Below are positions 9,968 through 46,654 of a DNA stretch of 64,000 bases, in pieces; position 1 is the stretch's first letter; the number at the start of each line of letters is the position of its first letter. The position numbers and the translations under genes were made by a program. Source of the stretch: an uncultured delta proteobacterium (GTDB taxonomy: Bacteria > Desulfobacterota > Deferrimicrobia > Deferrimicrobiales > Deferrimicrobiaceae); the NCBI GenBank assembly GCA_963811025.1, contig CAWEPX010000033.1, forward strand, positions 144,583-208,582, in the 5' to 3' direction. The notes beneath the pieces were generated by a model. The model searched no databases and was not told where the DNA came from. It saw nothing but the letters and a program-made list of their open reading frames with translations.

Positions 9968-9970
9968 GCG

Positions 9971-10663: not shown

Positions 10664-10675
10664 GGAGGGACAGCG

Positions 10676-10962
10676 ATGCGTCGCATTTTGGTCCTGTGTG
10701 TGTGTTTGGTACTCTTCCCGGCTGTCCTGCCGCAGCCGGGGATGTGGATAGCGAAGAGCAATCGGAAGCCAAGGAGCTATCCGGCATGTCGATCGTCGGC
10801 AATGACGAAGCACCGAAATCCCTTTACATCGTTCCCTGGAAAAGCTCGGAAATCGGCGCGGAGACCAGCCTGGACACGATGTTGAATGAAGGCGATGTGC
10901 CGGTGGACCGGGACGTTTTCAAGCGGCAGCTTAGATTTTATCAAGTCAGCACGAAGAAATAA
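10676..10962 (+). CDS. Small secreted acidic protein, apparently frameshifted after its signal peptide
   Basis: The signal peptide 'MRRILVLCVCLVLFPAV' is in frame 2. The mature-looking part 'LPGCPAAAGDVDSEEQ...PKSLYIVPWKSSEIG...' is in frame 1. The switch falls at a 'gtgtgtgtgtttgg' run. Confidence 0.35.
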
Positions 10963-10996
10963 CTTTGTTGTCTCGTTTGGGGAGAGGAGGAAAGCG

Positions 10997-11647
10997 ATGG
11001 GATTCTATTCAATAGTGGCGTTTTTCCAGAAGGGTGGGGTGTTCATGTACCCGATCCTGCTCGTGTTTGCGGTTGGGATGGCCATCGCGTTTGAACGCTG
11101 GGTTCAGTTGAACCGCATCCGGGGCGTAAATCAAAAGATGTGGGACATGCTGCATCCGGTGCTGGTCAAGGGAGAGTTCGATAAAGCCCGGGAAATGGTC
11201 AGCAAGGACAAATCCAGCATGGCGCAGATGCTGGGGATGGGACTGGCGCGCCAGGGCGCGGTCCGGCGGCGCGAAGACATCGAAATCGCCATGGAAGAGA
11301 GCATGATGGAGATCATCCCCCAGCTGGAGAAGCGCACGCCCTACGTGGCGCTGCTCTCCAATATCGCCACCCTGCTGGGGTTGCTCGGCACCATCATGGG
11401 GCTGATCGAGGCCTTCACCGCCGTTGCCAATGCCAACCCCGCCGAAAAGGCCGACCTGCTCTCGGCCAGCATCTCGGTGGCCATGAACACCACCGCCTTC
11501 GGACTGATGTCCGCGATTCCGCTGCTGCTGTTCCATGCCAAGCTGACCTCGACCGCCGGCCAGATCGTGGACAGCCTGGAAATGGCATCGGTCAAGACGC
11601 TGAACACCATCTCCAATTTCGCCAAGCGTCAATTCGAGAGGAGCTGA
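10997..11647 (+). CDS. MotA/TolQ/ExbB proton-channel protein
   Basis: RBS 'ggagaggagg' then ATG. Three TM helices and the TolQ/ExbB signature '...LLGLLGTIMGLIEAF...AMNTTAFGLMSAIPLLLFH'. Confidence 0.85.
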   Translation: MGFYSIVAFFQKGGVFMYPILLVFAVGMAIAFERWVQLNRIRGVNQKMWDMLHPVLVKGEFDKAREMVSKDKSSMAQMLGMGLARQGAVRRREDIEIAMEESMMEIIPQLEKRTPYVALLSNIATLLGLLGTIMGLIEAFTAVANANPAEKADLLSASISVAMNTTAFGLMSAIPLLLFHAKLTSTAGQIVDSLEMASVKTLNTISNFAKRQFERS

Positions 11648-11649
11648 CC

Positions 11650-12140
11650 ATGACCAGACGATATCATCACAAAAGGGGAAGGGAAGAAACATCCGGCCTG
11701 GACGTCACGACCTTCATGAACCTGATGGTGGTGCTCGTCCCGTTTCTGCTCATCAGTGCCGTCTTTTCGCGCGTGACGATCATGGAGCTGAGCGTTCCGA
11801 CCAGCGCCGGCGGAGCGGCTCGAAAGAGCCGAATTTCGCCATCGAAGTGATTGTCCGTAAAGCCGGACTGGAGATCGCCAACGGATCGTCCGTGGAGGCC
11901 GCAATTCCGAAAAAAGACGGTCACTACGACATGCAGATGCTGCACGAAATGCTCATGCGCCTGAAGGCACGTTACCCGAAGAAGGATGACGCGACAGTCC
12001 TGATGGAACCGGATATCGAGTACGACTATCTGGTCCAGGTCATGGATGCGGTACGCGGCGCCGAAGTGCGGGCGGAAGGGAGCGAAGAGGTCAAGAAAAT
12101 AGTTCTCTTTCCATACATATCGATAGGAGACGCGCCATGA
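11650..12140 (+). CDS. ExbD/TolR family protein (frameshift near 11815-11830)
   Basis: The N-terminal TM segment 'TTFMNLMVVLVPFLLISAVF' (ORF 11650-11850) and the C-terminal periplasmic ExbD domain 'IEVIVRKAGLEIANG...' (ORF 11847-12140) lie in different frames. Confidence 0.7.
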
Positions 12141-12632
12141 GAGAAACCAGACGCATGAAACGGATGGGGCGCAGCAGGAAGAAGATTACAGGTCTGAACC
12201 TGACGCCGCTGATGGATGTTTTCACCATTCTGGTGTTTTTCCTGCTTTTTCACTCGTCCGGCGGCGATATTGTGGAAGCGCCCAAGCAGATCAAGCTGCC
12301 CGATTCCGTCGTCGAGACCAAGCCAAGGGAAACGGTTGTGATCATGGTCAGCCCCGAGGTAGTGCTGGTCCAGGGCGAAGCCGTGATCGGCACCCCCGAA
12401 CTCCTTGATGACCGGATCGGGTCGGTTGCTGCGAATAACAGAGCGGTTGACGCAGCTTGAGCGCAATATCATCGGGATCAGCACCAAGACGGTTGCCGAA
12501 AACAAAGAAGTCACGATCCTTGCGGATAAAACGATTCCGTTCAAGGTACTTAAAAAAATAATGTCAACCTGTACGGACTCTGGATACGGAAGGATTTCCC
12601 TGGCCGTCATTCAGAAGGCCGTCCAGGGCTAG
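12137..12632 (+). CDS. Second ExbD/TolR family protein (frameshift near 12400-12420)
   Basis: N-terminus 'LNLTPLMDVFTILVFFLLF' and C-terminus '...KEVTILADKTIPFKVLKKIMSTCTDSGYGRISLAV' (ExbD C-terminal pattern) lie in different frames. Confidence 0.7.
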
Positions 12633-12642
12633 CGAGGATGCC

Positions 12643-14121
12643 GTGAAAACATCCATGTTAGCGCAGGAATTGGCGCCTCTGGAGGCGCTTATCGGGCAGG
12701 CGCGGCAAAGGAAAGATGCCCTTGAGGGTGAGTTGCGCGCCGTCGAGGCAGAACTCGAAACATTTTCCGCCGAGAGACAGCGGTTCGATGCGTTGCGGGA
12801 CATTTGCAATGCGTTCGACAGGCTGGGGGAACTGAAAGCGGATGCACTCTTTTGGGAAGGAGTCGCGGAGGGCCAGGACACCGCCGGACACGTGGAACGG
12901 GCGAGGAACCGGGTTGCCCGCTTCGAGGGGGAGATCGGCGGGATCCTGGAAAATCAGGCATCTCTACAGGGGCAGATCAAGCAATGTCTCGACGAATTGG
13001 ACATCCTCTATGAAGAAGTACGTGATGCGTACGACCGTGAAGAGCGGCGGAAGGAAGAGTTCGTCATAGAGCGGGAGATATCCCCTGTTCCCTATCGCGC
13101 AATGGTCATGCCATGGACCAAGGAGGCCGAGAGCGAAAGACGCTTCAATCGCTCCGTCCTCGTGGCGCTTTCCATAAGCTTTCTTTTCGGCGCTCTCATT
13201 TCCCTGATAATAGTGCCGATACCGGACCGCTCGGTCGCCGTTGCGGAAATTCCAAAACGATTGGTCCAGCTGGTCAAGAAGGAGATACCAAAGCCCGCGC
13301 CGGCGCCGAAGCGCGAGCCGAAAAAGGTCGAGGAGGAGACAAAACAGGCGAAGAAAGAGCCCAAACCCAAGGCCGATGAGCCTAAGCCGGAAGCACCGCC
13401 GAAAGAGGCGAAGCCGGCGGAGAAACCTACGAAAACGGCCGCCAATGACGGCGGGGCGGCGGCATCGAGGAAAAAGGCCGAAGGTGTCGGCGTTCTGAAG
13501 TTCAAGAACGCCTTCAAGGACTTAATGAACGAAGTTCCCGTTGCGAAGCTTGGCACCGAGGCCCGTCTGAGCAAGGAGAGCCCGCGGACGAAAGGACAGG
13601 CCGTGGCCCAGCGCTCGCTTGTGGCCATGCAGGGGGTGGGCGGCTCCAGCGGAGGTATCGGCGGCGCAGGCGTCAGCCGCAACGTTGGATACGGCAATGC
13701 CGGCCGGCTCGGAGGCGGCGGCGGTATCGGCAGCGGCGGTGGCAGCGGAGTGGGCTTTGTTCGGGTAGAAAGCTCCATAGCAAATTTGGAAGAATCGTCG
13801 AGGCCGACGAGCGATGGAATGGCCGCTGGACGAACGGATGAAGAAATCCAGATTGTATTCGATCGGTACAAGGCGGCCCTTTACCGGATCTACAACCAGG
13901 AACTGCGCAAGGACTCGACGCTACAAGGGAATATATTGATGCGAATCAGCATCGAACCGGACGGCGCGGTGTCCTTGTGCAAGGTGGAATCAACCGACTT
14001 GGCTTCAACCAAGCTGGTAGACAAGGTTGTGGAGCGCATCAGAAGGTTCAACTTTGGCCCGAAGGAAGGTGTTCAGAAGGTGACCATCCTGTACCCGATC
14101 GACTTTTTACCCGCTGGTTAG
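12643..14121 (+). CDS. TonB-family protein with ~170-aa cytoplasmic coiled-coil N-domain, one TM, Lys/Pro/Glu-rich and Gly-rich linkers, and C-terminal TonB domain (GltG/AgmX-like architecture)
   Basis: Coiled-coil N-terminus. TM 'VLVALSISFLFGALISLIIV'. Linker 'KPAPAPKREPKKVEEETKQAKKEPKPKADEPKPEAPPKEAKPAEKP'. Gly run. The C-terminal segment 'YNQELRKDSTLQGNILMRISIEPDGAV...KVTILYPIDF' resembles a TonB C-terminal domain. Confidence 0.7.
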   Translation: MKTSMLAQELAPLEALIGQARQRKDALEGELRAVEAELETFSAERQRFDALRDICNAFDRLGELKADALFWEGVAEGQDTAGHVERARNRVARFEGEIGGILENQASLQGQIKQCLDELDILYEEVRDAYDREERRKEEFVIEREISPVPYRAMVMPWTKEAESERRFNRSVLVALSISFLFGALISLIIVPIPDRSVAVAEIPKRLVQLVKKEIPKPAPAPKREPKKVEEETKQAKKEPKPKADEPKPEAPPKEAKPAEKPTKTAANDGGAAASRKKAEGVGVLKFKNAFKDLMNEVPVAKLGTEARLSKESPRTKGQAVAQRSLVAMQGVGGSSGGIGGAGVSRNVGYGNAGRLGGGGGIGSGGGSGVGFVRVESSIANLEESSRPTSDGMAAGRTDEEIQIVFDRYKAALYRIYNQELRKDSTLQGNILMRISIEPDGAVSLCKVESTDLASTKLVDKVVERIRRFNFGPKEGVQKVTILYPIDFLPAG

Positions 14122-14190
14122 AAAAGCGGAGGGGACGGGGTATACGTTTAAGGACGGAGACCACCGAGTGTCCGATTATAGGAGGAAACA

Positions 14191-14895
14191 ATGGGAATGA
14201 TTGCGTTTTTCCAAAAGGGCGGGTTGTTCATGTACCCCATTCTGCTGGTGTTTGTCGCCGGTATGGCCATTGTGGTCGAACGCTGGGTTCAGTTGAACCG
14301 CATCCGGGGCGTAAATCGAAAAATGTGGGATATGCTTCATCCCATACTGGCCAGGGGTGAATTCGACAAAGCGCATTCGATAATCGACAAGGACAAGTCC
14401 ACCATCTCTCAAATGCTGGGGATGGGACTGGCGCGCATGGGTGCGGTCCGGCGGCGGGAGGACATCGAAATCGCCATGGAAGAGAGCATGATGGAGATCA
14501 TCCCCCAGCTGGAGAAGCGCACGCCCTACGTGGCCCTGCTCGCCAATATCGCCACCCTGCTGGGGTTGCTCGGCACCATCATGGGGCTGATCGAGGCCTT
14601 CACCGCCGTTGCCAATGCGAATCCCGCCGAGAAGGCTGACCTGCTCTCGGCCAGCATCTCGGTGGCCATGAACACCACCGCCTTTGGGCTGATGTCGGCG
14701 ATTCCGCTTCTCCTGTTCCATGCCAAGCTGACATCGACCGCGGGCCAGATCGTGGACAGCCTGGAGATGGCGTCGGTAAAGTCGCTGAACAGTATTTCTG
14801 ATTTCAATAAGCGCCACTTCGAGGCGAAATCGGAGCCCCCGGCCGGAAAGCAGCAAGTTGCCACCCAGGAACCCCAGCTAGGGACAGCATCGTAA
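14191..14895 (+). CDS. MotA/TolQ/ExbB proton-channel protein, paralog of 10997-11647
   Basis: About 85% aa identity to the first copy. The central 269 nt are ~96% identical at the DNA level. Confidence 0.85.
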   Translation: MGMIAFFQKGGLFMYPILLVFVAGMAIVVERWVQLNRIRGVNRKMWDMLHPILARGEFDKAHSIIDKDKSTISQMLGMGLARMGAVRRREDIEIAMEESMMEIIPQLEKRTPYVALLANIATLLGLLGTIMGLIEAFTAVANANPAEKADLLSASISVAMNTTAFGLMSAIPLLLFHAKLTSTAGQIVDSLEMASVKSLNSISDFNKRHFEAKSEPPAGKQQVATQEPQLGTAS

Positions 14896-14953
14896 TGTCC
14901 GTTCAGGGCACGCGGAAACGATGTGTCAGCATCAAAAGAAAGGAGAAAAAGGG

Positions 14954-15529
14954 ATGAGAAACAAGGGATGGTTGGCTATCGCTCTGGGAGTGATGTTGCC
15001 GGTTATGTTATTCACGGTTTCATGTGCCAAAAAGACGGTGGTCCAATCCCAGCCGGAATCGATGGCTGGATCGGATGTCCAGAAGGCGGCAGTCCAGAAG
15101 GCGCCGGACAGACCCGCCGAGGAAGCCAGGCCGGACGGACGGCTTGAAGAAGACCGATTTCGGGCGGAAACCGCTGCCCGTGAAGCCGCCTTGACGGCGT
15201 TCGTCGGCGAGAATATCCATTTCGAATTCGACAGTTTTCTGTTGTCGGACCAAGCCCGGCAGATTTTGGTCAGCAAGGCCGAGTATCTGCGCACGAATCC
15301 GGATATAATGGTCACGGTGGAAGGGCATTGCGATGATCGCGGCACGAGTGAGTACAATATCGCCCTGGGCGAACGACGTGCCGAATCGGTCAGGATGTTC
15401 CTCGGTGATCTGGGCATCGGAACCAATCGGATGAATACCGTGAGTTACGGAGAAGAACGGCCCATTGCCACGGGACACGATGAGGCTTCCTGGGCCGAGA
15501 ACCGCAGAGCCCAGTTCGTGATCAATTGA
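14954..15529 (+). CDS. pal: Peptidoglycan-associated lipoprotein (OmpA-family C-terminal domain)
   Basis: Lipobox 'LFTVSCAKK'. OmpA/Pal motif 'TVEGHCDDRGTSEYNIALGERRAESV...NRRAQFVIN'. Confidence 0.8.
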   Translation: MRNKGWLAIALGVMLPVMLFTVSCAKKTVVQSQPESMAGSDVQKAAVQKAPDRPAEEARPDGRLEEDRFRAETAAREAALTAFVGENIHFEFDSFLLSDQARQILVSKAEYLRTNPDIMVTVEGHCDDRGTSEYNIALGERRAESVRMFLGDLGIGTNRMNTVSYGEERPIATGHDEASWAENRRAQFVIN

Positions 15530-15796
15530 TTTCCGACTAATCGCTTGTCCTTCAAGAACTGATCATGTGGGCACATCACGAGGTGTTTGGCTTGGAAATC
15601 CGCCGGGCAATCCATCGGCAGGCAACCGGCAATGCATCATTGGAATGTCGGGGTAACCCCCGAACTTCCCGGAATAAGACGACTTCGGAAGAACCCGGAT
15701 AGGATAAGGGAAAAACAGGGCATTTCAGCAAAATTTGGCCAATATACGGGAAACATAAGCGAGAACGTGCGCAATTTCATTGGAGGAGGTCGGTCG

Positions 15797-16201
15797 ATGA
15801 ATGCGATCCGGAAGGCAGGCTGGTTTTTCTCCTTGGTGTTGATGATGGCATGCGTAATGGGAGTACTCGGGTCGATCCGGGGAGAGGCAGTGGCGGGCGT
15901 CATCGCATCCCACGGCACGGACAGCGTGGTTGCTCGGAACGTGGACATCACCAAGGTCCAGTCATTCCTGGAGCAGAAGATCGTCCTGCAGAAGTTCTCC
16001 GACTACGGGGTCTCCGCGGACGAGGCGATGGAAAAGGTCCGCGCGATGAGCGACCGGGAGGTGCATCGGCTCGCTGCCCTGACCGACCGGGCGGCCGAAG
16101 GGACGGACTCCGGGCTGGGCCTGCTGATCGGGCTGGCGGTCCTCGTCCTCCTGATCGTCGTGATCCTCAAGCTGATGAATAAGGAAGTCGTCGTTCGCTG
16201 A
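15797..16201 (+). CDS. Hypothetical exported protein with C-terminal TM anchor
   Basis: RBS 'ggaggaggtcggtcgATG'. N-terminal signal/TM and C-terminal 'LGLLIGLAVLVLLIVVILKL'. Confidence 0.45.
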   Translation: MNAIRKAGWFFSLVLMMACVMGVLGSIRGEAVAGVIASHGTDSVVARNVDITKVQSFLEQKIVLQKFSDYGVSADEAMEKVRAMSDREVHRLAALTDRAAEGTDSGLGLLIGLAVLVLLIVVILKLMNKEVVVR

Positions 16202-28945: not shown

Positions 28946-30007
28946 GTGAAAGCGCAAATGCCTGCCATCGGCAAGGTATCTTCCGAAATATTCGATGAAA
29001 TCATCCTTCCCCACCTGGGACGGAAACGCCCGGAAATCCTGGTGGGGCCCCAGCATGGAGTGGATGTGGGGGTTGTCGACCTGGGGGACGGCAAGGTGAT
29101 GGTGACCACTACCGATCCGATTTTCGTGGTGCCTCCTTACGGATGGGAACGTTCCGGCTGGTTTGCGGTCCACATCCTGGCTTCCGACGCGGCCACGTCG
29201 GGAATCCGGCCGACCTATATCACCATGGATCTGAATCTTCCCCTGTCGATGACCCGGGAGGACTTCGAAGCGTTATGGGCGGTGATGCACCGGGAGTGCG
29301 ACAGAATCGGCATGGCCATCATCACCGGACACACCGGCCGCTATGAAGGGTGTGAATACCCCATGATCGGCGGGGCTACCGTGATCGGTATCGGCCCGAA
29401 AGACCGGTATGTGACCCCGAATATGGCAAAGGTGGGAGATTTCATTATCATCACCAAAGGGGCGGCCATCGAGGCCGCCGGATTGTTCGCCGTAACCTTT
29501 CCCCACCGGGTGGCGGAACGATACGGGGAAGATGCGGCACGGGAAGCCGAGGAGATTTTCTGGCAGATGTCCGTCGTGGAGGATGCGCTCACCGCGGTGG
29601 AAGCAGGCGTGCGGGAAGACGGAGTCACCACCATGCACGATGCGACCGAGTGCGGGGTATGGGGCGGTCTGTTCGAGGTCGCCCAGGCCTCGGGAGTCGG
29701 GATGACCATCGACAAGGAGAAGATCATCGTGCAGGACGCGGTCCGGAAGGTGTGCGACCTGTTCGGCATCGACCCGTTTTCCTCGATCAGCGAAGGAACC
29801 CTGATTCTCACCTGCCGGGCGCACAAGGCGCAGGAAGTGGTCCGGCGGCTGGGTGACAAGGGGATCCCTGCCACCATGGTGGGGGAAATCGTGGAGCGGC
29901 AGCGGGGGATGCGGTTTTTCGAAAAGGGAATTTCCCACGAGTTGGTCCATCCCCGGGTGGATCCGTTCTGGGGGGCTTTCGGAAAGGCCGCGTCGCAGGG
30001 GAGGTGA
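28946..30007 (+). CDS. AIR-synthase-related (PurM/HypE/ThiL-fold) protein
   Basis: RBS 'ggagga' then GTG. 'VGPQHGVDVGVVDLGDGKVMVTTTDPIF...' is a PurM-like N-domain. It lies directly upstream of, and co-oriented with, tenA-thiE-thiL-thiD. Confidence 0.65.
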   Translation: MKAQMPAIGKVSSEIFDEIILPHLGRKRPEILVGPQHGVDVGVVDLGDGKVMVTTTDPIFVVPPYGWERSGWFAVHILASDAATSGIRPTYITMDLNLPLSMTREDFEALWAVMHRECDRIGMAIITGHTGRYEGCEYPMIGGATVIGIGPKDRYVTPNMAKVGDFIIITKGAAIEAAGLFAVTFPHRVAERYGEDAAREAEEIFWQMSVVEDALTAVEAGVREDGVTTMHDATECGVWGGLFEVAQASGVGMTIDKEKIIVQDAVRKVCDLFGIDPFSSISEGTLILTCRAHKAQEVVRRLGDKGIPATMVGEIVERQRGMRFFEKGISHELVHPRVDPFWGAFGKAASQGR

Positions 30008-30723
30008 CATCGGTGTCGAAACGTTCCTTTTACCAGGAAATGCGGCATGCGTCCGATCCCCTCTGGCAGGCGATTCTGGCGCACCCGTTCGTGACGGGGA
30101 TCGGAGACGGCACCCTGTCCCGGGACCGGTTCGAGTTCTACCTGAAGCAGGATTACGTGTACCTGATCGATTTCAGCCGGGTCTTCGCCCTGGCGAGCGC
30201 AAAATCCTGGCATCTTCAGGATATGGGAACCTTTGCCACTTTGCTTTCCACCACCCTGAACGTGGAAATGAATCTCCATCGGAAAACGTGCGCCGCTTTC
30301 GGGATTCCGGCGCAGGACCTGGAACAGACCCGCAAGAGCATGATCACGTCCGCCTATACCGATTTCCTGGTCCGGACCTGTCACGAGGGGAACCTGTCGG
30401 ACATCCTGGCGGTGCTGACGCCCTGTGCCTGCGGGTACGTCGAGATCGGCCAGAAGATGAAATCCCGTGGCCTCCCGGACAATCCGTTCTTCCGGGACTG
30501 GGTCGAGACCTATTCCTCCCCGGAGTTTTGCGATCTTGCCGACTGGCTTGTCGGAAAAGCGAACGAGTACGGCGGGGACGCCCCTGCGCAGCGCAAGGAG
30601 TACTGGTACCGGCTCTACGAAACGAGCACCCGCTTCGAATACCTGTTTTTCGACATGAGCTGGAAGAAAGAGGAATGGCCGGCCGCAGCCACGTATTCTT
30701 CCGGGGGATTCCCCATTGATTGA
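30004..30723 (+). CDS. tenA: Aminopyrimidine aminohydrolase (thiaminase II, TenA/ThiC family)
   Basis: 'WQAILAHPFVTGIGDGTLSRDRFEFYLKQDYVYLIDFSRVFALA' is the TenA signature. Confidence 0.8.
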   Translation: MTSVSKRSFYQEMRHASDPLWQAILAHPFVTGIGDGTLSRDRFEFYLKQDYVYLIDFSRVFALASAKSWHLQDMGTFATLLSTTLNVEMNLHRKTCAAFGIPAQDLEQTRKSMITSAYTDFLVRTCHEGNLSDILAVLTPCACGYVEIGQKMKSRGLPDNPFFRDWVETYSSPEFCDLADWLVGKANEYGGDAPAQRKEYWYRLYETSTRFEYLFFDMSWKKEEWPAAATYSSGGFPID

Positions 30724-31372
30724 CAGGGTCTCTCCCGGCCGCTGGCGCCTCTATGTCATCACGGACGAGTCGGTAAGCCGGGGCCGGTCGCATATCGAGA
30801 TCGCGGAGGCCGCGATCCGGGGCGGAGCCGATGTCATACAGCTGCGGGACAAGACCGCCTCCGGGGGAACGCTTTACCGGGTCGCGCTCGCGCTTCGAAC
30901 GCTCACCCGGGAGGCGAAGGTTCCGCTTATCGTCAACGACCGTATCGATATCGCTCTGGCCGCCGACGCCGACGGGGTCCACCTCGGCCAGAAGGATCTG
31001 CCTGCGTCCGTGGCGCGCCACATCATGGGACCCGGCAGGATCCTGGGGGTTTCCGCGGAGACGCTGGAAGAAGCCCTCCTGGCGGAGAAGGACGGGGCGG
31101 ATTACCTGGGGGTGGGCCCGGTGTTCGAGGCCCGGAAAACCAAGGCGGATGCCGGGGAGCCTCTCGGCCTGGGACGGATTGCACGTGTCCGGAAGCATTG
31201 CCGCCTCCCCATTGTCGCGATCGGAGGGATCGACGCGCAAAACGCGCGGCAGGTGCGGGAGGCGGGGGCGGATTCCGCAGCGGTGATATCCGCGATCGTC
31301 GGGGCGGACGATATTGCCCGGGCGGCAGAGCAGATGAAATCCCTGCTCCGGTTGCCGGGGGAAGTCCCGTGA
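30716..31372 (+). CDS. thiE: Thiamine-phosphate synthase
   Basis: 'LYVITDE...GADVIQLRDK...VPLIVNDRIDIALAADADGVHLGQKDL...IVAIGGI'. Confidence 0.85.
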   Translation: MIDRVSPGRWRLYVITDESVSRGRSHIEIAEAAIRGGADVIQLRDKTASGGTLYRVALALRTLTREAKVPLIVNDRIDIALAADADGVHLGQKDLPASVARHIMGPGRILGVSAETLEEALLAEKDGADYLGVGPVFEARKTKADAGEPLGLGRIARVRKHCRLPIVAIGGIDAQNARQVREAGADSAAVISAIVGADDIARAAEQMKSLLRLPGEVP

Positions 31373-32427
31373 GAAAAGGGCGGAAAAGCGTGGGGGAGAT
31401 CGGGGAATTTTCCCTGATCGACAGGATCGGGAAAATCCTGCCCGCCACCAGAGCCAGGGATCTGCTGATCGGCATCGGAGACGATACCGCGGTGATCCGG
31501 ATGGACAAGCGGCGGGCGCTGCTGGTGACCTGCGACATCCAGGTGGAAGGCCGGCATTTCCGGTTCGACCGCATCACTCCTTACCAGCTGGGTCGGCGTG
31601 CCATGGCGGTGAACGTAAGCGATATCGCCTCGATGGGGGGAAAGCCCACCTTTGCCCTCGTCTCGCTGGGACTCCCGGGCGACTTTTCCGTCACAAGCTA
31701 CGACCGGCTGTTCGAGGGGATGCGGGATGAGCTGAAACGCCACGGGGCCCGGATCGTTGGGGGGAACCTGGCCCGGACCGAAGACGTGCTGATCGTGGAC
31801 ATCACCCTGATGGGGGAAAACGATCTGTCACGGGTGATGACCCGCGGCGGCGCCCGGGTGGGCGACCGCGTGTTTGTCACAGGGAGACTGGGAGCGTCCG
31901 GCGCGGGGTTCCAGGCGCTGAAGGCGTTCGGGAAAAAAGTACCCGCAAGGTACCGCCACCTGGTTGCCTGCCACCTTGTTCCCACGCCCCGGGTTACGCT
32001 GGGGCGGCGGATCTCGCGCGCCGGCGTAGCCACCGCAATGATCGACCTGAGCGACGGGCTGGCCGGCGACCTGTTCCACATCTGTACCCGGAGCAAGGTG
32101 GGAGCGGAGATCTATCCGGACCTTCTGCCGCTTCCGGAACGGATCGGGGAGATCGCGGCAAGGTCCGGCAAATCGGTGATCGACCTTGCCCTGCACAGCG
32201 GGGAGGATTACGAATTGCTCTTTACCGCGCCGCCCGGCGTCCCTGCGCGAACGATTCGGTCCCTCTCCCGCGATCCGGGGATACCGATCACCGAAATCGG
32301 AAAAATCGTGGGGCGGAAAGAAGGATATTGCCTGGTCGATTCCCAAGGGATCAGAACCCCCTTGACCCCGGCCGGCTGGGATCATTTCCGGACACCGGGA
32401 AGATCGCGAAAGGAAACGAAACGATGA
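31370..32427 (+). CDS. thiL: Thiamine-monophosphate kinase
   Basis: 'GEFSLIDRI...IGIGDDTAV...LVTCDIQVEGRHF' is the PurM-fold ThiL signature. The GTG start overlaps the thiE stop. Confidence 0.8.
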
Positions 32428-40130: not shown

Positions 40131-40397
40131 CTACTCCGCTCCTCCCTTGCCCGGCCAGGGACAAGCGTTCGATACCGTGATCACCATGACCGCGTGACCC
40201 TTGGCCGCGGCCCCGCGGAAAGCGTCGAAAAGGGCCGGGAAGACCTTCTCGTCATCGCCCCACACCAGGGTGCTCATCGCCCCGGTCTGTCTTTCGATCC
40301 CGTGTTGCGCAAACGTCTGCGTCACGGCGTCGATGGAGGGGGAGAGATCATCCTGCCCCAACGGGTAGAGGCTTACCTGCGCGGAAATTCCATACAT
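40131..40397 (-). CDS. MTH1187/YkoF-family small protein (thiamine/HMP-binding fold, DUF77)
   Basis: 'MYGISAQVSLYPLGQDDLSPSIDAVTQTFAQHGIERQTGAMSTLVWGDDEKVFPALFDAF' is the characteristic pattern. Confidence 0.65.
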   Translation of the reverse strand: MYGISAQVSLYPLGQDDLSPSIDAVTQTFAQHGIERQTGAMSTLVWGDDEKVFPALFDAFRGAAAKGHAVMVITVSNACPWPGKGGAE

Positions 40398-40467
40398 GTC
40401 GCTCGACCTCCTTGTGGTAGGCGCCTCCCTGCCGTCCATCCGACGGGCACGGATGACTCCCTGGAAC

Positions 40468-41213
40468 CTAGTGATGTCCCCCGTGCTTTTCCAGAAGGCG
40501 GAGGATGTTCTCGTAGCCCCTGTGGTCCGCGTTCTGCAGTGGCGTAACGCCGAATTTGTCCCTCGCGTTCACGTCGGCCCCCTTCGCGATGAACAGCCTG
40601 GCAAGGTCCTCGTATCCCTTCAGGGCGGCCAGGTGCAGCGGCGTGATTCCGTAGTTGTTCCTCGCGTTGACGTCTGCCCCCTTCGACACGAGCAGTATCG
40701 CGACCGGTTTGTGGCCCATGTAGACCGCCTTGTGCAGCGGCGTGTCGCCACCCTGGTCCTTCGCGTCCAGGTCGACACCGCGCGCGAGAAGCTGTTTCAT
40801 CACGGCCTCGTTTCCCGTATCGGCCGCGTACAGCAAAGGCGTCTGCCCGAATCTGTCTCTCGCCTCCACGTCGGCGCCGTTCGCGATCAGGAGTTTCACT
40901 ACCTCTTCCCGGTTTTTCTCAACGGCCTTGTGCAACGGCGTTCCGTCATTGGCATCCTTCGCGTTCACATCGGCGCCGCTTTCGATCAGGAGATTCGCGA
41001 TGGCCCCGTTTCCCGACTCGGCTGCCCAGTGCAGCGGCGTTCTGCCGAGGTTATCCCTCGCGTTCACGTCGGCGCCCTCGGCGATGAGCTCCACCGCCAG
41101 CAACCAGTTTCCGTCCATGGCTGCCAGATGAAGAGGCTCCGCGGATACGGGAGATGCGGCAATCGCGATCGCGGATATCAGAATTCCGACCAGGAGAAAA
41201 CGAACGGCCACGG
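40468..41213 (-). CDS. Secreted ankyrin-repeat protein
   Basis: GTG start after 'aaaggagcaaaccc'. Signal peptide 'VAVRFLLVGILISAIAIAASPVSA'. About 6 ANK repeats ('GRTPLHWAAESGNGAIANLLIESGADVNAKD...'). Confidence 0.75.
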
Positions 41214-41432
41214 GTTTGCTCCTTTCCGGCCCGGACAGGGTAACCCTGCTGCTATTTTTACACGTAACGTGCCGGAACCGAAGTTCCGATACACAGGACG
41301 TGAGGAGGAAGATGACCATGACGATCGATGTGGACCCGGACGCCGGCGAGATCTTCGTCAAGGATGATGCCGGCAACGAGCGCCCGGTGAAGTCCATCGT
41401 GGCATCCCGGCGCCTGGTAATATTGTGCCCGC

Positions 41433-41957
41433 CTACGGATAGTTTTCTCCGTAATCCGTCGTTTCCCGGAGAACCTTCTCTTCCAGACGAATTCGCTGCC
41501 GGAGCACGACAAGGTTGGCCAGGGAAAACGCGACGAGCGTGAACGGCGCGCGCAGAAGGAGGGGAAAAAGGAGAAACTCCAGCACGATGACGAGGTAGTT
41601 CGGATGCCGGAAGAACCGGTAGGGGCCGGCCCGGGAGACCTTGCCGCCCGGGACGGAGACGATCCGTGTCGTCCACCTTCCCCCCAGCGCCGAGATGCTT
41701 GCGTATCGCAGGGCGGTAACGGCGACAAGCCCGGCAAGGCAGGCGGTTGTCCTCGTGTCCAAGGGCACGCGCCACGGGTACGACTCCCAGGCAAGGGAAA
41801 GGAAGAAAAACGTGTGGAGGCTTACCATGACGGGATACGTTTCCGGGTAGAATTCCTTCCCGCCCCGGGCGATCAGGGCACGCCTGTTGCGCCGGCAAAG
41901 CGCGAGCTCGCCCATCCGCTGGAGAAAGAGCACCGCCAGGATCCACGCGAAGGACAT
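41433..41957 (-). CDS. Isoprenylcysteine carboxyl methyltransferase (ICMT)-family membrane methyltransferase
   Basis: 'YRFFRHPNYLVIVLEFLLFPL' is the ICMT/PEMT motif. Four TM helices. Confidence 0.65.
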   Translation of the reverse strand: MSFAWILAVLFLQRMGELALCRRNRRALIARGGKEFYPETYPVMVSLHTFFFLSLAWESYPWRVPLDTRTTACLAGLVAVTALRYASISALGGRWTTRIVSVPGGKVSRAGPYRFFRHPNYLVIVLEFLLFPLLLRAPFTLVAFSLANLVVLRQRIRLEEKVLRETTDYGENYP

Positions 41958-42150
41958 GACCCCTGCCGCTCCCCCCGAACGTGTTAGAATCCCACCTATT
42001 ATACGAGGGATAACGGCTCATACGAGGGACAACAGCGATTCCCCCGGGGAGTCTCCCGCCACGATGACGTTTCCCCGCTTTTCGAATTTCCTTTGCCGTT
42101 TCTTCGTCCTGTCGCGGGAGCCGAAACGATCCGTCAAGGAGACGCCGTTC

Positions 42151-42741
42151 ATGATGAAGGTGGCGAGAATGGCGGTTGTTTTCCTTCTGGTGCTTGCCGC
42201 CTCCGCCCGGGCCGGGGAGCTAAAGGGTACGTGCTCCTTGCGGTTCGCGGGGGTTTCCACCCTGCACGATTTTACGGGAACCGTCCGTTGCCAGCCTTTC
42301 TCCGCGGACCTTGTGATGGGCCCGGACGGGGGGACGAGGATTCCCCACGTGGAAGTCGACGTCCAGGTACGGGAAATGGACACCGGGAACGATACCCGGG
42401 ACGGACAGATGCGGGAGATGTTCCAGAGCGACAGGTACCCGGTTATCCACGGAACCGTCAGAGAGATCGACGTGGACGGGATTCGGCGGGATATCGGGAA
42501 AGAAGGGGGAGGAAAGGCGTTCTTCGATCTGACGCTCGGGATACGGGATGTGGAAAGAACCATCCATGCCGCGGTGACAAACTTCCGGGAAGAAGGGAAC
42601 CGGGTCGGCTTCGACGTGGAATTCCCCATATCGCTTGCGGATTACGGCCTGAAGGCCCCGTCGTTTCTCGGGATATTCAGGGTTCGCGACAAGGTTACCG
42701 TAACGGGGAACGTCCGGCTGGAAGTTTCATCCAAGCAGTAG
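42151..42741 (+). CDS. YceI-family periplasmic (polyisoprenoid/lipid-binding) protein
   Basis: Signal peptide 'MMKVARMAVVFLLVLAASARA'. 'FAGVSTLHDFTGTV...FDLTLGIRDVERTIHAAV...ADYGL' is a YceI-like pattern. Confidence 0.75.
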   Translation: MMKVARMAVVFLLVLAASARAGELKGTCSLRFAGVSTLHDFTGTVRCQPFSADLVMGPDGGTRIPHVEVDVQVREMDTGNDTRDGQMREMFQSDRYPVIHGTVREIDVDGIRRDIGKEGGGKAFFDLTLGIRDVERTIHAAVTNFREEGNRVGFDVEFPISLADYGLKAPSFLGIFRVRDKVTVTGNVRLEVSSKQ

Positions 42742-42780
42742 GACCGCAGAGGGAAACGCTGGGCGCCGGGGGTAACGTTC

Positions 42781-43944
42781 ATGGCGGTGTGGATTCATCG
42801 GATCGATTCGCTTCTGCCGGATTTCTCCTTCACCCAGGAAGAGGCGAGCGCAAAGATGCAGGAGTGGGCCCGGGACGAGCGGGAAAGGCGTCTCATCCGG
42901 GCCATCTATCGGAGCTCCGGCATCGAGCGCCGGCACGCAGTCATAAGGAATTACGACGGCGATGCCCCCGACAGCTTCTTCCGGGCAGGTCCCGACGGGA
43001 GCATGAAAGGGCCGGGCACCGCAGCGCGAAACGCCATCTTTGCCTCCGAGTCCCGGCATCTCTCGGTAGCCCTGGCGCGAAAAACACTGGACAACTGCCC
43101 CGGGGTCGATGCGGGAGACGTAACGCACGTCGTCACGGTCTCCTGTACGGGCTTCTACAACCCCGGGCCCGACTACTACATCGTGCGCGACCTCGGGATG
43201 TCCCTCGGCACCGAACGATACCACCTGGGGTTCATGGGTTGCTACGCTGCCGTCCCGGCGCTGCGGATGGCAGTCCGGTTCTGCGAGGCGGATCCCGGCG
43301 CCGTCGTCCTGGTCCAGTGCCTCGAATTGTGTTCCCTGCATCTCAAGCTGTCCGGCACGGAGGACATGATCCTCGCGAACTCGCTTTTCTCGGACGGGGC
43401 GGCCGCCGCGATCGTAAGCGCGAGGGAGCCGGCCCCTGGCCAAAGCGCGTACCGGATCGACGGATTCCACAGCACGCTTGTGCCCGGCGGCGAGCAGGAT
43501 ATGGCCTGGCGCATCGGGGACAACGGCTTCGACATCGCTCTTTCCAGCTACGTTCCGAAGATCATCGGCGCCAACCTCCGGGAGTTCGTCGAGCCGTCTC
43601 TTTCCGTAACCGGCATGTCGATCGCCGACGTGGACCTCTGGGCCATCCACCCGGGGGGGAAATCCATCATCGACCAGGCGCAGAGGTGCCTGTCCCTGCG
43701 GCCGGAACAGGTTCGGGAGTCGCGCGAGGTGCTTCGCAAGTACGGCAACATGAGCAGCGTTTCCATCCTCTTCGTGCTCGCGGAGATCCTGGAACGGCAG
43801 GGCGAGGCCGGCGAGGAAACGGTCTGCGCCGTTGCTTTCGGCCCGGGACTGACGGTGGAAATGGCCCTCCTGTCGGTCCTTCGGACCGCGTCCGGTATCC
43901 GGGACGACCGGGCGGGAAGGGAACGTTCGGCCGTCAAGGTCTGA
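42781..43944 (+). CDS. Type III polyketide synthase (chalcone/stilbene synthase family)
   Basis: Cys-His-Asn triad contexts 'VVTVSCTGFYNPG', 'WAIHPGGKSII', 'YGNMSSVSILFVL'. Length 387 aa. Confidence 0.85.
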   Translation: MAVWIHRIDSLLPDFSFTQEEASAKMQEWARDERERRLIRAIYRSSGIERRHAVIRNYDGDAPDSFFRAGPDGSMKGPGTAARNAIFASESRHLSVALARKTLDNCPGVDAGDVTHVVTVSCTGFYNPGPDYYIVRDLGMSLGTERYHLGFMGCYAAVPALRMAVRFCEADPGAVVLVQCLELCSLHLKLSGTEDMILANSLFSDGAAAAIVSAREPAPGQSAYRIDGFHSTLVPGGEQDMAWRIGDNGFDIALSSYVPKIIGANLREFVEPSLSVTGMSIADVDLWAIHPGGKSIIDQAQRCLSLRPEQVRESREVLRKYGNMSSVSILFVLAEILERQGEAGEETVCAVAFGPGLTVEMALLSVLRTASGIRDDRAGRERSAVKV

Positions 43945-44037
43945 CCTTCCCGATGCATACGCGGAATCCTTCCCCGCTCCCGGTCTTCCGAAGGAAGGGG
44001 AATGTTGGAAAGGGACAGCGTACAGGGAGGAGGCGTC

Positions 44038-45345
44038 ATGAGGCTTTCCGTCGCCACGAATTTCGACCCGGCGCTGGTCGAGGCGATGAACGGATATCCC
44101 GTCGTGGAGCTTTTCGGAAAGCTCCGGGAGGACGCCGTCGGCGGAGGCCGGGCGCCGTACCAGCTGGCTCGCGTGTCCCGGAAGCGCCTCGCGGACCATG
44201 TGCGGCAGGCCCGCCTGGCCGGGATCGAATTCAACTATCTCCTGAACGCCTCCTGCCTCGGGAACCGGGAGATGACGAGAGCGGGGCAGAGGGAAATCGA
44301 GGAACTCGCCGGCTGGCTCTGCGGGATCGGCGTCGCCTCGGTGACGGTATCTTCGCCTTACCTGCTTACGCTCATCAAGACCCGGTATCCGGGACTCAAG
44401 GTCCGCGTTTCGGTCTTCGGCGGGGTGGACAGGGTGCGCAAAGCCCAGATGTGGGAGGAGCTGGGAGCGGACTGCATCGTGCTCGACAGCATCCTGGTCA
44501 ACCGGGAGCTCGGGGTGCTCGAACGAATCCGGAAACGTGTCCGGTGCGATCTTGCGCTGCTGGTCAACAACAACTGCCTGTCGGGATGCGCCTTCTCTCC
44601 CATGCACATGAACGCGCTTTCGCACGCCGGACAGTCGTGGAACGGGAACCGGGGATTTTTCATCGACTGGTGCTTCCTCCGGTGCACGGAGATGAAGCTG
44701 CGCGACCCGGTCAACTATCTCCGGTCGGAATGGATCCGTCCCGAAGACCTGCACGTGTACGAAGATCTCGGGTACGACCTGTTCAAGATCGCCGAGCGCG
44801 ACATCCCGACGCCGCTCATGGCAACAAGGGTCCGGGCGTATGCCGGGCGAAGGTACGACGGAAACCTCCTCGATCTCGTCCAGCCCTATGCTTTCCAGGG
44901 GGTGGAACAGAACGACCGGTATTACCGGCGCGGCCCGGCATGGATCCTGCGCTTTCTCCTGCGTCCCTTTCTTGTGAATCCCGCGCGGATGATGCTCCTC
45001 AAGCGCGTGGCCGATCTGCGGCACATGACGCGGCCTCTCACGGGGGAGGCTCCCGTCCATATCGACAACCGGGCCCTCGACGGGTTCCTGGATCGTTTCC
45101 GGGAATCCGGATGCCGCGACGTCGAATGCGAGGAATGCCGGTGGTGCCACGAATTCGTCCGGAAGGCCGTTCGGATCGACGAGGCCCACCGGGCGCAGGT
45201 CCTCAAGGCCTACGAAACGTTGTTCGGGGCGCTCGACGACGGGAGCATGTGGAGGTATCTCCCCGGAAGGGACGGCGGGGAAGGGCCGCTTTTCCCCCGA
45301 CCCTCCCTGGCGGGGGCGAGCGACGGGGGAGACGAGGAAGGGTGA
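44038..45345 (+). CDS. Peptidase U32-family protein (UbiU/UbiV/RlhA-like; putative Fe-S, O2-independent hydroxylase fold)
   Basis: RBS 'agggaggagg' then ATG. 'LSVATNFDPALVEAM...YPVVELFG...AGIEFNYLLNAS' is the U32 N-terminal pattern. Cys cluster 'NNNCLSGC...WCFLRC'. Confidence 0.7.
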   Translation: MRLSVATNFDPALVEAMNGYPVVELFGKLREDAVGGGRAPYQLARVSRKRLADHVRQARLAGIEFNYLLNASCLGNREMTRAGQREIEELAGWLCGIGVASVTVSSPYLLTLIKTRYPGLKVRVSVFGGVDRVRKAQMWEELGADCIVLDSILVNRELGVLERIRKRVRCDLALLVNNNCLSGCAFSPMHMNALSHAGQSWNGNRGFFIDWCFLRCTEMKLRDPVNYLRSEWIRPEDLHVYEDLGYDLFKIAERDIPTPLMATRVRAYAGRRYDGNLLDLVQPYAFQGVEQNDRYYRRGPAWILRFLLRPFLVNPARMMLLKRVADLRHMTRPLTGEAPVHIDNRALDGFLDRFRESGCRDVECEECRWCHEFVRKAVRIDEAHRAQVLKAYETLFGALDDGSMWRYLPGRDGGEGPLFPRPSLAGASDGGDEEG

Positions 45346-46181
45346 TGGCGCGGTTCGACCTGAAAAGCAGGGACTACCTCCGCGTCCCGGAGAGAAAAAA
45401 ACTCTACAACGAGCTTCATTTCGCCGAGGCGGCGCCGCGATACGACACGGCCACGCGCGCCATGTCGCTGTTTCGCGACGCAGCGTGGAAGAGACGACTC
45501 GTCGGCTCGCTGCCGGAGATCGCAAAGCCCTTGTGCGTGGACATCGCGTGCGGGACGGGAGACGTCTCCTTCCTCCTGGCGCAGCGGTATCCGGAAGGCC
45601 GAACCGTGGGACTGGACATCGCCGAGCCGATGCTTGGCATCGCCCGGGAGCGAAACCGGTACCCCAATCTTCGTTTCGCAAGGCAGGACATGTGCGCGAT
45701 GGAATTTCCGGAAGGATCCGTCGACGTCGTCACGGGAAGCTACGCGCTGCGCAACGCGCCGGATCTCCCGCGCGCCCTGGGCGAGATCCGGCGGATCCTG
45801 AAGCCGGCCGGCACGGCCGCTTTTCTCGATTTCTCGAAGCCCCGGTCGGCGATATTCCGGATCCCCCAATACCTGCTCCTGCGGACGTGGTGCGGCTCCT
45901 GGGGGCTGATCCTCCACGGGAACCACGAGATCCACGGGTACATCGCGGCAAGCCTTGGGGCGTTCCCGGACAGGGGCAACCTTCTCGACCTCTTCGCGCA
46001 GAGCGGTTTTGCCCTTGTCCTGGCGAAGCGGTTCTTCCTGGGGATCACGGAACTTCTCGTTTTTCGGCGCGCGGTCCGTAAGACGCAAACCAACCGGCCA
46101 ACCTGCCTGCCTATCGGCCACGGTCAAGGTCCGTCCGGCCCCGGCATCCGGCGGACGCCGACCCGCACGGGAGGAGGGTAG
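45345..46181 (+). CDS. Class I SAM-dependent methyltransferase (UbiE/MenG/COQ5-like)
   Basis: Motif I 'VDIACGTGDVSFLLA', post-I 'VGLDIAEPML', motif II 'VDVVTGSYALRNAPD'. The ATG overlaps the U32 stop (ATGA). Confidence 0.75.
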   Translation: MARFDLKSRDYLRVPERKKLYNELHFAEAAPRYDTATRAMSLFRDAAWKRRLVGSLPEIAKPLCVDIACGTGDVSFLLAQRYPEGRTVGLDIAEPMLGIARERNRYPNLRFARQDMCAMEFPEGSVDVVTGSYALRNAPDLPRALGEIRRILKPAGTAAFLDFSKPRSAIFRIPQYLLLRTWCGSWGLILHGNHEIHGYIAASLGAFPDRGNLLDLFAQSGFALVLAKRFFLGITELLVFRRAVRKTQTNRPTCLPIGHGQGPSGPGIRRTPTRTGGG

Positions 46182-46189
46182 CCCCGCTC

Positions 46190-46654
46190 CTACTTGATCT
46201 TGAGCTTCTCCCGTTCCTCGTGGACCTGCTCCGAGGTGAGCTTCTTTCCCCGCAGGGCCTTGACCTCGGCGGGTGTGATCTTCTTGTGGCCTTTGGGCAG
46301 CAGCTTCTCGTTTCCCCAGCTGGACAGGACGTAATTCAGCACCGCTGCGATCTCTTCGTCTTTCAGCTGGTCCCCGAGAGCGGGCATCTCGCCGTTGTAC
46401 TTCTTCCCCTCGACCTCGATCTCGCCCTTGAGACCGAACAGGACCACCTGGATGGGAAAGGATCGCCTGGCGTCGACAAGCTTCGCCGCGTGCCCTGCGA
46501 GGGGCGGGAAGACGCCCGCGATGCCCCCTCCGGTCGACTGATGGCAACCGAAGCACCGTCGATAGACGGCGGCGCCGTCCGCCTTGGCCAGGGCCGGGGC
46601 GGCCAGGGCCAGAGACAACACCAGAACTGCCAGAAGAGTCCATGGTTTGCGCAT
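46190..46654 (-). CDS. Class I c-type cytochrome (monoheme)
   Basis: Signal peptide 'MRKPWTLLAVLVLSLALAAPALA'. Heme motif 'CFGCH'. Met ligand region 'YNGEMPA'. Confidence 0.75.
   Translation of the reverse strand: MRKPWTLLAVLVLSLALAAPALAKADGAAVYRRCFGCHQSTGGGIAGVFPPLAGHAAKLVDARRSFPIQVVLFGLKGEIEVEGKKYNGEMPALGDQLKDEEIAAVLNYVLSSWGNEKLLPKGHKKITPAEVKALRGKKLTSEQVHEEREKLKIK

Follow-up and report, generated by a model that had tools for sequence, protein, structure and literature searches.

A conserved gene cluster of type III polyketide synthase, divergent U32 protein and UbiE-like methyltransferase as a candidate oxygen-independent pathway to a phenolic lipid

We analysed a stretch of 64,000 nucleotides (hereafter the window) from an uncultured delta proteobacterium of the Deferrimicrobiaceae (assembly GCA_963811025.1, contig CAWEPX010000033.1, positions 144,583 to 208,582), in which a group of genes built around a type III polyketide synthase (PKS), a U32-family protein and a UbiE-like methyltransferase had been proposed, from the sequence alone, to encode an anaerobic route to an alkylresorcinol- or alkylquinone-like lipid. 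A listing of the open reading frames (ORFs) and Pfam scans find all six ORFs, with the expected domains, where this original prediction had placed them:

41433-41957, minus strand: ICMT-family membrane methyltransferase, 174 aa (Pfam PF04140, E 2e-20)
42151-42741, plus strand: YceI-family secreted lipid-binding protein, 196 aa (Pfam PF04264, E 4e-14, 53.6 bits)
42781-43944, plus strand: type III PKS, 387 aa (Chal_sti_synt_N PF00195, E 2.5e-20; Chal_sti_synt_C PF02797, E 1.3e-27)
44038-45345, plus strand: divergent U32-family iron-sulfur (Fe-S) protein, 435 aa (PF01136, 29 bits)
45345-46181, plus strand: UbiE/Coq5-like S-adenosylmethionine (SAM)-dependent C-methyltransferase, 278 aa (PF01209, 108.7 bits)
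46190-46654, minus strand: monohaem c-type cytochrome, 154 aa (PF00034), convergent with the UbiE-like gene

The longest possible U32 ORF opens at 44002; the real start is at 44038, since a GGAGG Shine-Dalgarno sequence lies 6 nt upstream of it and the resulting N-terminus, MRLSVATNF, is invariant in homologues. The U32 and UbiE-like genes are translationally coupled, as had been suggested, but through a 1-nt overlap that reads TGATG rather than ATGA. Gene calls made independently on public contigs, a JGI contig collinear with the window (L060) and a 525-kb ENA contig that carries small indels and a PKS identical to that of the window (L059), return the same genes. The best matches likewise assign the window to Candidatus Deferrimicrobiaceae (MBNT15 / Desulfobacterota-related). 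The indels of L059 relative to the window lie upstream; in this contig the ICMT gene is called at 111 aa (vs 174) and the large GDH gene is split into three calls, probably through assembly errors in the record. A promoter and terminator scan of the region gave no signal above background.

The arrangement recurs well beyond the window. A pattern scan for orthologues of the U32 protein, covering one genome per species in 185,579 species, found 50 loci whose U32 proteins are 59-94% identical to that of the window, and the neighbouring genes at these loci were identified by tblastn with the window proteins. In 40 of the 50 loci a type III PKS is found no more than 6 kb from the U32 orthologue, and the same count, 40 of 50, holds for a UbiE-like gene; the loci that lack one of these neighbours are mostly contig ends. 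Where at least 5 kb of upstream and at least 1.5 kb of downstream sequence are available, both genes are present in 21 of 24 loci, the three exceptions being L013, L033 and L048 (Geothermobacter hydrogeniphilus HR-1, the sole isolate). The cluster is conserved in at least three bacterial phyla, with synteny across Deferrimicrobia, Desulfuromonadales and Planctomycetota. A Desulfuromonas metagenome-assembled genome (MAG) has the arrangement YceI-PKS-MMPL-p201-U32-UbiE, in which most genes overlap their neighbour by 4 nt; a Planctomycetaceae MAG holds the same families rearranged, as methyltransferase-PKS, MMPL-YceI on the opposite strand, and U32-UbiE; and L064, found from a PKS query, holds a radical SAM/ICMT/YceI-PKS-U32-UbiE operon with tight 4-nt overlaps, in which a B12-radical SAM gene is the extra member. 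At the Planctomycetota loci the identity to the window proteins declines unevenly, from about 70% for U32 through 48-59% for UbiE to 36-41% for the PKS, which indicates that the PKSs found with the U32/UbiE pair differ considerably from one another. The pair is fused into one polypeptide in three independent protein clusters (P0046, P0056 and P0066), and a continuous U32-UbiE ORF of 669 aa was verified on contig L058, directly after a PKS; fusions of this kind are expected if the two proteins catalyse consecutive pathway steps. The core module is thus the type III PKS, the U32 protein and the UbiE-like protein, usually accompanied by YceI. The co-localisation survey that the original prediction had called for therefore comes out in its favour, and its view of the genes as a functional unit is upheld by the synteny in three phyla, the overlapping stop and start codons and the U32-UbiE fusions. 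The synteny counts and the fusions also lead us to reject chance adjacency.

Smaller variations were seen among the related loci. At L013 (9239-11227) a 34-aa PKS remnant stands between YceI and U32, with no UbiE-like gene in the remaining ~1.5 kb of contig, and the locus looks like a decaying copy of the cluster. Some loci have a second UbiE-like paralogue of about 30% identity. In several Deferrimicrobia-type loci, L064 (10234-10422), L008, L010, L019, L021 and L063, the UbiE-like gene is directly followed by a conserved 62-aa ORF (MELxLTxPEKxVLRET...); this ORF is missing from the window, its place there being occupied by the convergent gene for cytochrome c. In L028 (2788-4251), L064 (4330-5754), L011, L013, L017 and L027 the ICMT/YceI side of the cluster is preceded by a gene for a B12-binding radical SAM protein, and a distant U32 relative, L056, likewise neighbours such a gene, which could encode a further methylation or tailoring enzyme.

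The PKS fits the type III class (chalcone synthase superfamily) in its length, in its N- and C-terminal Chal_sti_synt domains and in having no carrier-protein domain, and its Cys-His-Asn triad, formed by C154 (GFMGC), H290 (HPGG) and N323 (GNMSS), is kept in all cluster PKSs aligned. The nearest solved structures are Ectocarpus PKS1 (4B0N) and the long-chain PKS18 of M. tuberculosis (1TED). A tryptophan, W243, stands 47 residues before the catalytic His and is conserved in all eight cluster PKSs aligned, the planctomycete ones included; we take this spacing to equal that between G256 and H303 of chalcone synthase (alfalfa CHS2 numbering). We infer that W243 is equivalent to W281 of ArsB, a correspondence that does not come from a direct alignment. 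Trp at ArsB position 281, which is Gly in the pyrone-forming ArsC, is a partial determinant of resorcinol formation and is also found in PkqA (PMC9927152). On these sequence features the enzyme is predicted to be an alkylresorcinol-type synthase, which would build an aromatic head group on a fatty-acyl starter.

The U32 protein is a true but deeply divergent member of its family, with a re-spaced barrel Cys site and a second four-Cys site. Its PF01136 match scores 29 bits against a cut-off of 22.4 and spans the first ~90 of 233 profile positions, and the predicted fold is the MK0906-type TIM barrel; fold and conserved Cys together confirm the family membership claimed for it. An exhaustive search of 1.84 billion cluster representatives (50% identity) found 1,728 relatives, 477 of them at E < 1e-30, which are typically 390-400 aa long and 33-50% identical to the window protein. 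An alignment of 53 sequences from this representative search, A2, was used for profiles, Cys counts and the structure model. The AlphaFold model built with A2 has a mean predicted local distance difference test score (pLDDT) of 92.6 and a predicted template-modelling score (pTM) of 0.90, a first AlphaFold2 model from 12 close homologues having been poor (pLDDT 62.9). For the U32 family the PDB holds only MK0906 of Methanopyrus kandleri (5D88), a protein of 254 residues with no known function, and the window protein has about 180 further residues, which include both conserved Cys motifs. These motifs are C180-X3-C184-X27-C212-X3-C216 on the barrel side and CX4CX2CX2C at the C-terminus (C359-X4-C364-X2-C367-X2-C370), and the conservation of the Cys residues in A2 is as follows:

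C180, C184 and C216: conserved in 52-53 of 53 sequences
C212: conserved in 36 of 53
C170: conserved in 35 of 53
C73: conserved in 43 of 53
C359, C364, C367 and C370: conserved in 51-52 of 53

The 'Cys cluster' noted originally consists of two separate motifs rather than one. Of the four barrel-side Cys that would be putative 4Fe-4S ligands, C180, C184 and C216 are conserved almost throughout and C212 less widely, and the canonical spacing is not kept. In an alignment with RlhA, C180 falls on the first, and C212 and C216 on the last two, Cys of CX6CX15CX3C, the canonical U32 motif (PMC6747719). With its second site, one polypeptide may carry the two clusters that UbiU and UbiV supply as a heterodimer.

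Where the protein belongs within the family is a separate question. In profile comparisons with A2, TrhP (97% probability, E 4e-11) and RlhA (96%, E 4e-9) came out ahead of UbiU (80%, E 1.5e-5), and UbiV was not significant. No NCBIfam family, the UbiU, UbiV and TrhP models included, matches the window protein at E <= 0.01. As controls, E. coli UbiU, UbiV and TrhP each pass the cut-off of their own NCBIfam model, and the UbiU/TrhP models are also matched across subfamilies by UbiU, RlhA and TrhP, with E values from 1e-40 to 1e-56 (no RlhA-specific model was seen in the library). The label 'UbiU/V-like' has to be given up, the profiles being nearer to TrhP and RlhA if anything, and orthology to UbiU or UbiV is rejected on the same matches. 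With these two RNA-modifying enzymes as its nearest characterised relatives by profile, and with at least 67% identity across phyla, a conservation like that of housekeeping enzymes, one could suppose that the protein is itself an RNA-modifying hydroxylase and its adjacency to the PKS meaningless. We find this scarcely credible, since the TrhP model, which true paralogues cross-match at E < 1e-40, does not recognise it, since the PKS/UbiE adjacency is kept in three phyla despite rearrangement and extends to fusions with UbiE, and since 50 loci among 185,579 species genomes are far too sparse for a core RNA-modification enzyme.

The methyltransferase is placed in its family by PF01209 and a SAM-binding glycine-rich motif, VDIACGTGD. 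Its best NCBIfam matches are UbiE/MenG models, all below cut-off (NF001244, 159.3 vs 216 bits; TIGR01934, 141.3 vs 158.35), so that it falls outside the UbiE/MenG equivalogs. The nearest solved structure is yeast Coq5 (4OBW), followed, among others, by the aromatic C-methyltransferases NovO and CouO. Since UbiE/MenG are its best family matches, and since YceI proteins are polyisoprenoid binders, one might assign the U32 and UbiE-like proteins to an isoprenoid quinone pathway (menaquinone- or ubiquinone-like) that merely lies beside the PKS or uses its ring precursor. This we consider very improbable. Beyond the cluster, no quinone- or lipid-related gene is found among the ~26 window ORFs scanned against Pfam; these include no UbiA/MenA, Men, Mqn or other Ubi gene (prenyltransferases were not exhaustively searched), and none appears in the Pfam-annotated calls of L058 and L061-L064. 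The failure of the methyltransferase at every equivalog cut-off and the second UbiE-like paralogue of some loci speak in the same direction, as does the PKS, which is the constant partner.

The YceI protein starts with an N-terminal Sec signal peptide, MMKVARMAVVFLLVLAASARA/GE (ending in ...ASARA/GE), and has no solved relative detectable by sequence. It has a tblastn match in 33 of the 50 loci, immediately precedes the PKS at most loci of Deferrimicrobia and Desulfuromonadales, and adjoins the MMPL gene in a planctomycete locus; we propose that it may carry the product in the periplasm. Frequent additions (14-16 loci) are an MMPL/RND transporter and a ~200-aa secreted protein that belongs to no known family, and the nearest solved relatives of the MMPL proteins from related loci are MmpL4, Patched and HpnN, all lipid transporters. 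The MMPL gene, the gene for the ~200-aa protein and the radical SAM gene of the L028 type were all three searched for in the window and are absent from it. The original prediction of a lipid pathway had missed this export side, which points to a lipid directed to the periplasm or envelope rather than simply to an inner-membrane respiratory quinone. Two further genes that the prediction had drawn into the pathway turn out, in the locus survey, to be lineage-specific neighbours outside the core. The first, ICMT, is a PF04140 membrane methyltransferase gene adjoining the type III PKS; it adjoins the cluster in 15 loci, none of them titled Desulfuromonadales/Geobacter or Planctomycetota, mostly Deferrimicrobia-type or unresolved 'Deltaproteobacteria' MAGs, is also present in L064, and is probably a lineage-specific accessory O-methyltransferase. 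The second, the cytochrome c gene, in which the CxxCH motif is visible (CFGCH), is found beside the cluster at no loci other than those of the six closest relatives (L002, L004-L007 and L012), and its membership of the cluster is doubtful.

Known type III PKS systems provide the frame in which these genes can be read. B. subtilis BpsA/BpsB, of which BpsB is an ICMT-type methyltransferase, and A. vinelandii ArsABCD supply membranes or cyst coats with long-chain alkylresorcinols or pyrones; unlike the window cluster, as read here, these systems lack a hydroxylation step, a U32 protein, a UbiE-type enzyme and YceI/MMPL genes dedicated to export. In the Srs and Pkq systems an ICMT-type methyltransferase again neighbours the PKS, and the hydroxylase or oxidoreductase is an O2-dependent flavoprotein. 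S. griseus Srs and actinobacterial PkqABC make alkyl-benzoquinones, which serve as electron carriers when oxygen is scarce, by methylating and hydroxylating an alkylresorcinol from a type III PKS (PMC9927152). The Trp that the window PKS probably has at the ArsB-281 position would be shared with theirs. The Srs and Pkq clusters rely on the hydroxylase/oxidoreductase and lack U32, UbiE-type, YceI and MMPL genes, whereas the window cluster has a U32 Fe-S protein and a Coq5-like C-methyltransferase in the hydroxylase's place; of the combination that defines the Srs, Pkq and Hid operons (PKS, methyltransferase and flavin-type hydroxylase in one operon), it contains the PKS and methyltransferases but, within the searches described below, no flavin-type hydroxylase. 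Cyanobacterial hidABC and a planctomycetal operon of methyltransferase, flavin adenine dinucleotide (FAD)-oxidoreductase and PKS make hierridin-type methoxy-alkylphenols, and the 'S. ferox' variant has genes for a lipoprotein and a lipid/isoprenoid-binding protein upstream (PMC10896814). These operons share with the window an alkylresorcinol synthase and one or more tailoring methyltransferases, and Planctomycetota also bear the U32 version, but the published operons have an FAD-dependent oxidoreductase and the U32 protein is unmentioned there (PMC10896814); the planctomycete MAG loci differ from the published planctomycetal operon in holding methyltransferase-PKS, MMPL-YceI and U32-UbiE.

The other relevant comparison is with UbiU-UbiV-UbiT, where a phenolic ring with a lipid tail is hydroxylated independently of O2 by U32 Fe-S proteins, prephenate being the oxygen donor, and where UbiE as C-methyltransferase and an accessory protein that binds lipids also take part (PMC6747719, PMC10990095). 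The window cluster resembles this system in outline and departs from it in its parts: it has one U32 gene of neither family instead of a UbiU/UbiV pair, with another Cys spacing and the added C-terminal CX4CX2CX2C, its lipid binder is a secreted YceI protein and not an SCP2/UbiT homologue, and its proposed substrate would be a polyketide rather than a prenylated 4-hydroxybenzoate derivative. A tblastn search with E. coli UbiT at E <= 1e-3 found no homologue in the window or any of the related loci, and the UbiTUV module, a UbiU/UbiV pair with UbiT, is thus not present.

Our best reading of the region is that it represents an O2-independent counterpart of the Srs/Pkq/Hid pathways from alkylresorcinol to alkylquinone; that it is a conserved operon dedicated to making and tailoring a long-chain phenolic lipid without molecular oxygen we judge to have about an even chance of being correct. 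The type III PKS would condense a fatty-acyl starter with malonyl units and cyclise the chain, most likely, given the Trp at the cavity position, to a 5-alkylresorcinol. The U32 protein would then hydroxylate this electron-rich ring to a hydroxy-resorcinol or 1,4-quinol by U32-type chemistry, in which UbiU/V take the oxygen from prephenate, and would thereby fill the place of the oxidoreductase or hydroxylase (a flavoprotein where described) of Srs, Pkq and Hid. The coupled, and in some genomes fused, UbiE/Coq5-like enzyme would C-methylate the resulting quinol ring, and in this lineage the ICMT-type enzyme might O-methylate a remaining hydroxyl. The product, a methyl/methoxy alkyl-benzoquinol or a related phenolic lipid, would pass to the secreted YceI protein and, in the fuller clusters, an MMPL/RND transporter and the secreted ~200-aa protein would carry it to the periplasm or outer membrane.

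The link to hydroxylation is drawn from the U32 fold, the homology to TrhP, RlhA and UbiU and the conserved Cys, and that to methylation of a benzoquinol from the closest solved relative of the methyltransferase, the benzoquinol C-methylase Coq5. U32 proteins are proposed to be prephenate-dependent, O2-independent hydroxylases of ubiquinone and RNA (PMC10990095, PMC6747719), and the host lineages are of anaerobic or facultative iron-reducing types (PMC9386147). With queries for class-A flavin monooxygenases, no UbiH/UbiI-type flavin hydroxylase was found in the window or in any related locus, nor does a flavin hydroxylase appear in the Pfam-annotated flanks of the related loci; the absence of such an enzyme, on which the original prediction had built when it put the U32 protein in its place, is thus seen within these searches. 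Overall, that prediction gains comparative support, with its subfamily assignment corrected and the export components added.

A number of observations count against the reading as an O2-independent hydroxylation pathway. The U32 protein stands outside every NCBIfam family, as described above, and is only 20-24% identical to characterised U32 enzymes over the aligned barrel region; it does not keep the canonical CX6CX15CX3/4C spacing, and only three of its barrel-side Cys are strictly conserved. Direct in vitro hydroxylase activity has not been shown even for UbiU/V, RlhA and TrhP (PMC10990095), and the PKS sequence cannot decide between resorcinol, pyrone and phloroglucinol as the ring type. 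Distant members of the U32 subfamily (35-50% identity) have heterogeneous contexts, among them B12-radical SAM, benzoyl-CoA-reductase-like and polysaccharide genes. At L063 (7001-8913; ENA ERZ27237538, contig k141_1373701), which like L064 came from a PKS query, a PKS 70% identical to that of the window is followed, with a 4-nt overlap, by a UbiE-like gene, with neither U32 nor YceI, at the same chromosomal position as the window cluster (RNase PH/Ham1 downstream); this locus is a natural 'U32-minus' variant, and it implies that the U32 protein performs a tailoring step which is not obligatory and is dispensable for some product. Conversely, solitary U32 orthologues of 69-71% identity, with no PKS or UbiE within 10 kb, occur at L033 (8635-13841), flanked by ferritin and catalase, and at L048 (8993-11650), flanked by peroxiredoxin and an IscU/NifU-like gene, the flanking genes having been read by eye from the ORF translations. 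Both of these contexts are of an oxidative-stress or iron kind. The contexts of the distant members are too mixed for any general function to be derived from them, and their unrelated neighbours imply that the link to the PKS is specific to the orthologous group of the window protein.

Some of these observations would fit another use of the U32 protein, in which a phenolic lipid is made and the protein carries out an anaerobic tailoring reaction other than hydroxylation, for instance by decarboxylating an alkylresorcylic acid, by reducing or dehydroxylating the ring, or by a redox reaction in support of the methyltransferase, the product being a methylated alkylresorcinol or pyrone for the envelope and not a quinone. 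We regard this as possible if rather unlikely. It would accommodate a protein that lies in no characterised U32 subfamily and has a non-canonical Cys pattern with an extra C-terminal four-Cys motif, distant members that adjoin radical SAM and BcrAD/HGD-D-type reductive enzymes, a PKS-UbiE pair without U32, and a secreted YceI and an MMPL protein suggestive of an envelope lipid. It is harder to reconcile with the finding that each of the four U32 proteins whose function has been studied is connected with O2-independent hydroxylation of (hetero)aromatic rings; enzymes of the Coq5/UbiE type are known to act on quinols, and coupling or fusion to one of them would suit a hydroxylation directly before, and the analogous aerobic clusters have a hydroxylase at the same place. 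What the analysis establishes for the favoured pathway is the gene families, catalytic residues, fold, conserved Cys, synteny and fusions; the reactions themselves, the product, where it goes and any electron-carrier role are inferred.

The favoured chemistry can be extended in function, rather than replaced, by supposing that its product is a true respiratory or extracellular electron carrier, an anaerobic, non-isoprenoid 'polyketide quinone' which YceI and MMPL deliver to the periplasm or outer membrane. In Mycobacterium and Streptomyces, polyketide quinones serve as alternate electron carriers when oxygen is limiting, a precedent for this role (PMC9927152), and the hosts, rich in multihaem cytochromes, are predicted to reduce iron (PMC9386147); moreover, a c-type cytochrome adjoins the cluster in the window and in five of its six closest relatives, and a multihaem cytochrome lies ~4 kb downstream at the planctomycete locus. 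Against this, the cytochrome neighbour is not kept beyond close relatives, the window and loci show no link to respiratory complexes, alkylresorcinol derivatives also serve as structural, antioxidant and antimicrobial lipids, and the solitary U32 orthologues beside ferritin/catalase or peroxiredoxin/IscU would fit a stress role equally well. On balance we think an electron-carrier function unlikely. The fullest version of the proposal, an oxygen-independent route to a polyketide benzoquinone in which a single-subunit, two-cluster U32 hydroxylase replaces the flavin monooxygenase, and whose product is exported by YceI/MMPL as an electron carrier or shuttle at the periplasm or outer membrane of metal- or nitrate-respiring anaerobes, is likewise improbable in our view.

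A full-text search that covered few subscription journals found no literature linking a U32 protein to a type III PKS or to any biosynthetic gene cluster, and within that scope the pairing is, as had been supposed, undescribed. Public annotation labels the cluster's U32 proteins only 'U32 family peptidase' or 'collagenase-like protease'. U32 is a large and mostly uncharacterised family, and its few studied members carry out the only known hydroxylations with an organic oxygen donor (prephenate). Were the favoured reading to hold, U32 chemistry would gain a third substrate class, a polyketide lipid, after ubiquinone and RNA, and with it a simpler test system consisting of one U32 polypeptide and an alkylresorcinol-type substrate from a single PKS. 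It would also mean that quinone-like or polyhydroxylated phenolic lipids thought to need O2 can be made anaerobically, and would identify an actively exported lipid in iron-reducing Desulfuromonadota/Deferrimicrobia and in Planctomycetota, with a bearing on extracellular electron transfer, envelope biology and the lipid biomarkers of anoxic sediments.

The remaining genes of the window are housekeeping genes: TPR, ExbB, Crp, TrkH, NamZ, thiamine genes, the large GDH and cyanase, and further sigma-54 regulators, PntAB, RNase PH and Ham1. Next to the cluster, between a YkoF-like gene and the ICMT gene, a gene on the minus strand (40468-41250) encodes a hydrophobic N-terminal segment, possibly a signal peptide or membrane anchor, and ankyrin repeats, which were identified by eye and have no recorded Pfam match; among the closest relatives, L001, L002, L005-L007 and L012 keep this gene together with ICMT. 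Scattered thiamine-related genes lie upstream of the cluster (30004-32427 and 40131-40439), namely TenA, a ThiL-like gene of the AIR-synthase family and a YkoF-type thiamine-binding protein, and the genes called in L059 include a ThiD-like kinase. At the start of the window, a plus-strand ORF of 1334 aa (41-4045) has no Pfam match at E <= 1e-4; genes for several TPR proteins and two genes of the ExbB/TolQ type come after it (4636-16201), and together these may form an uncharacterised envelope or Ton-like system.

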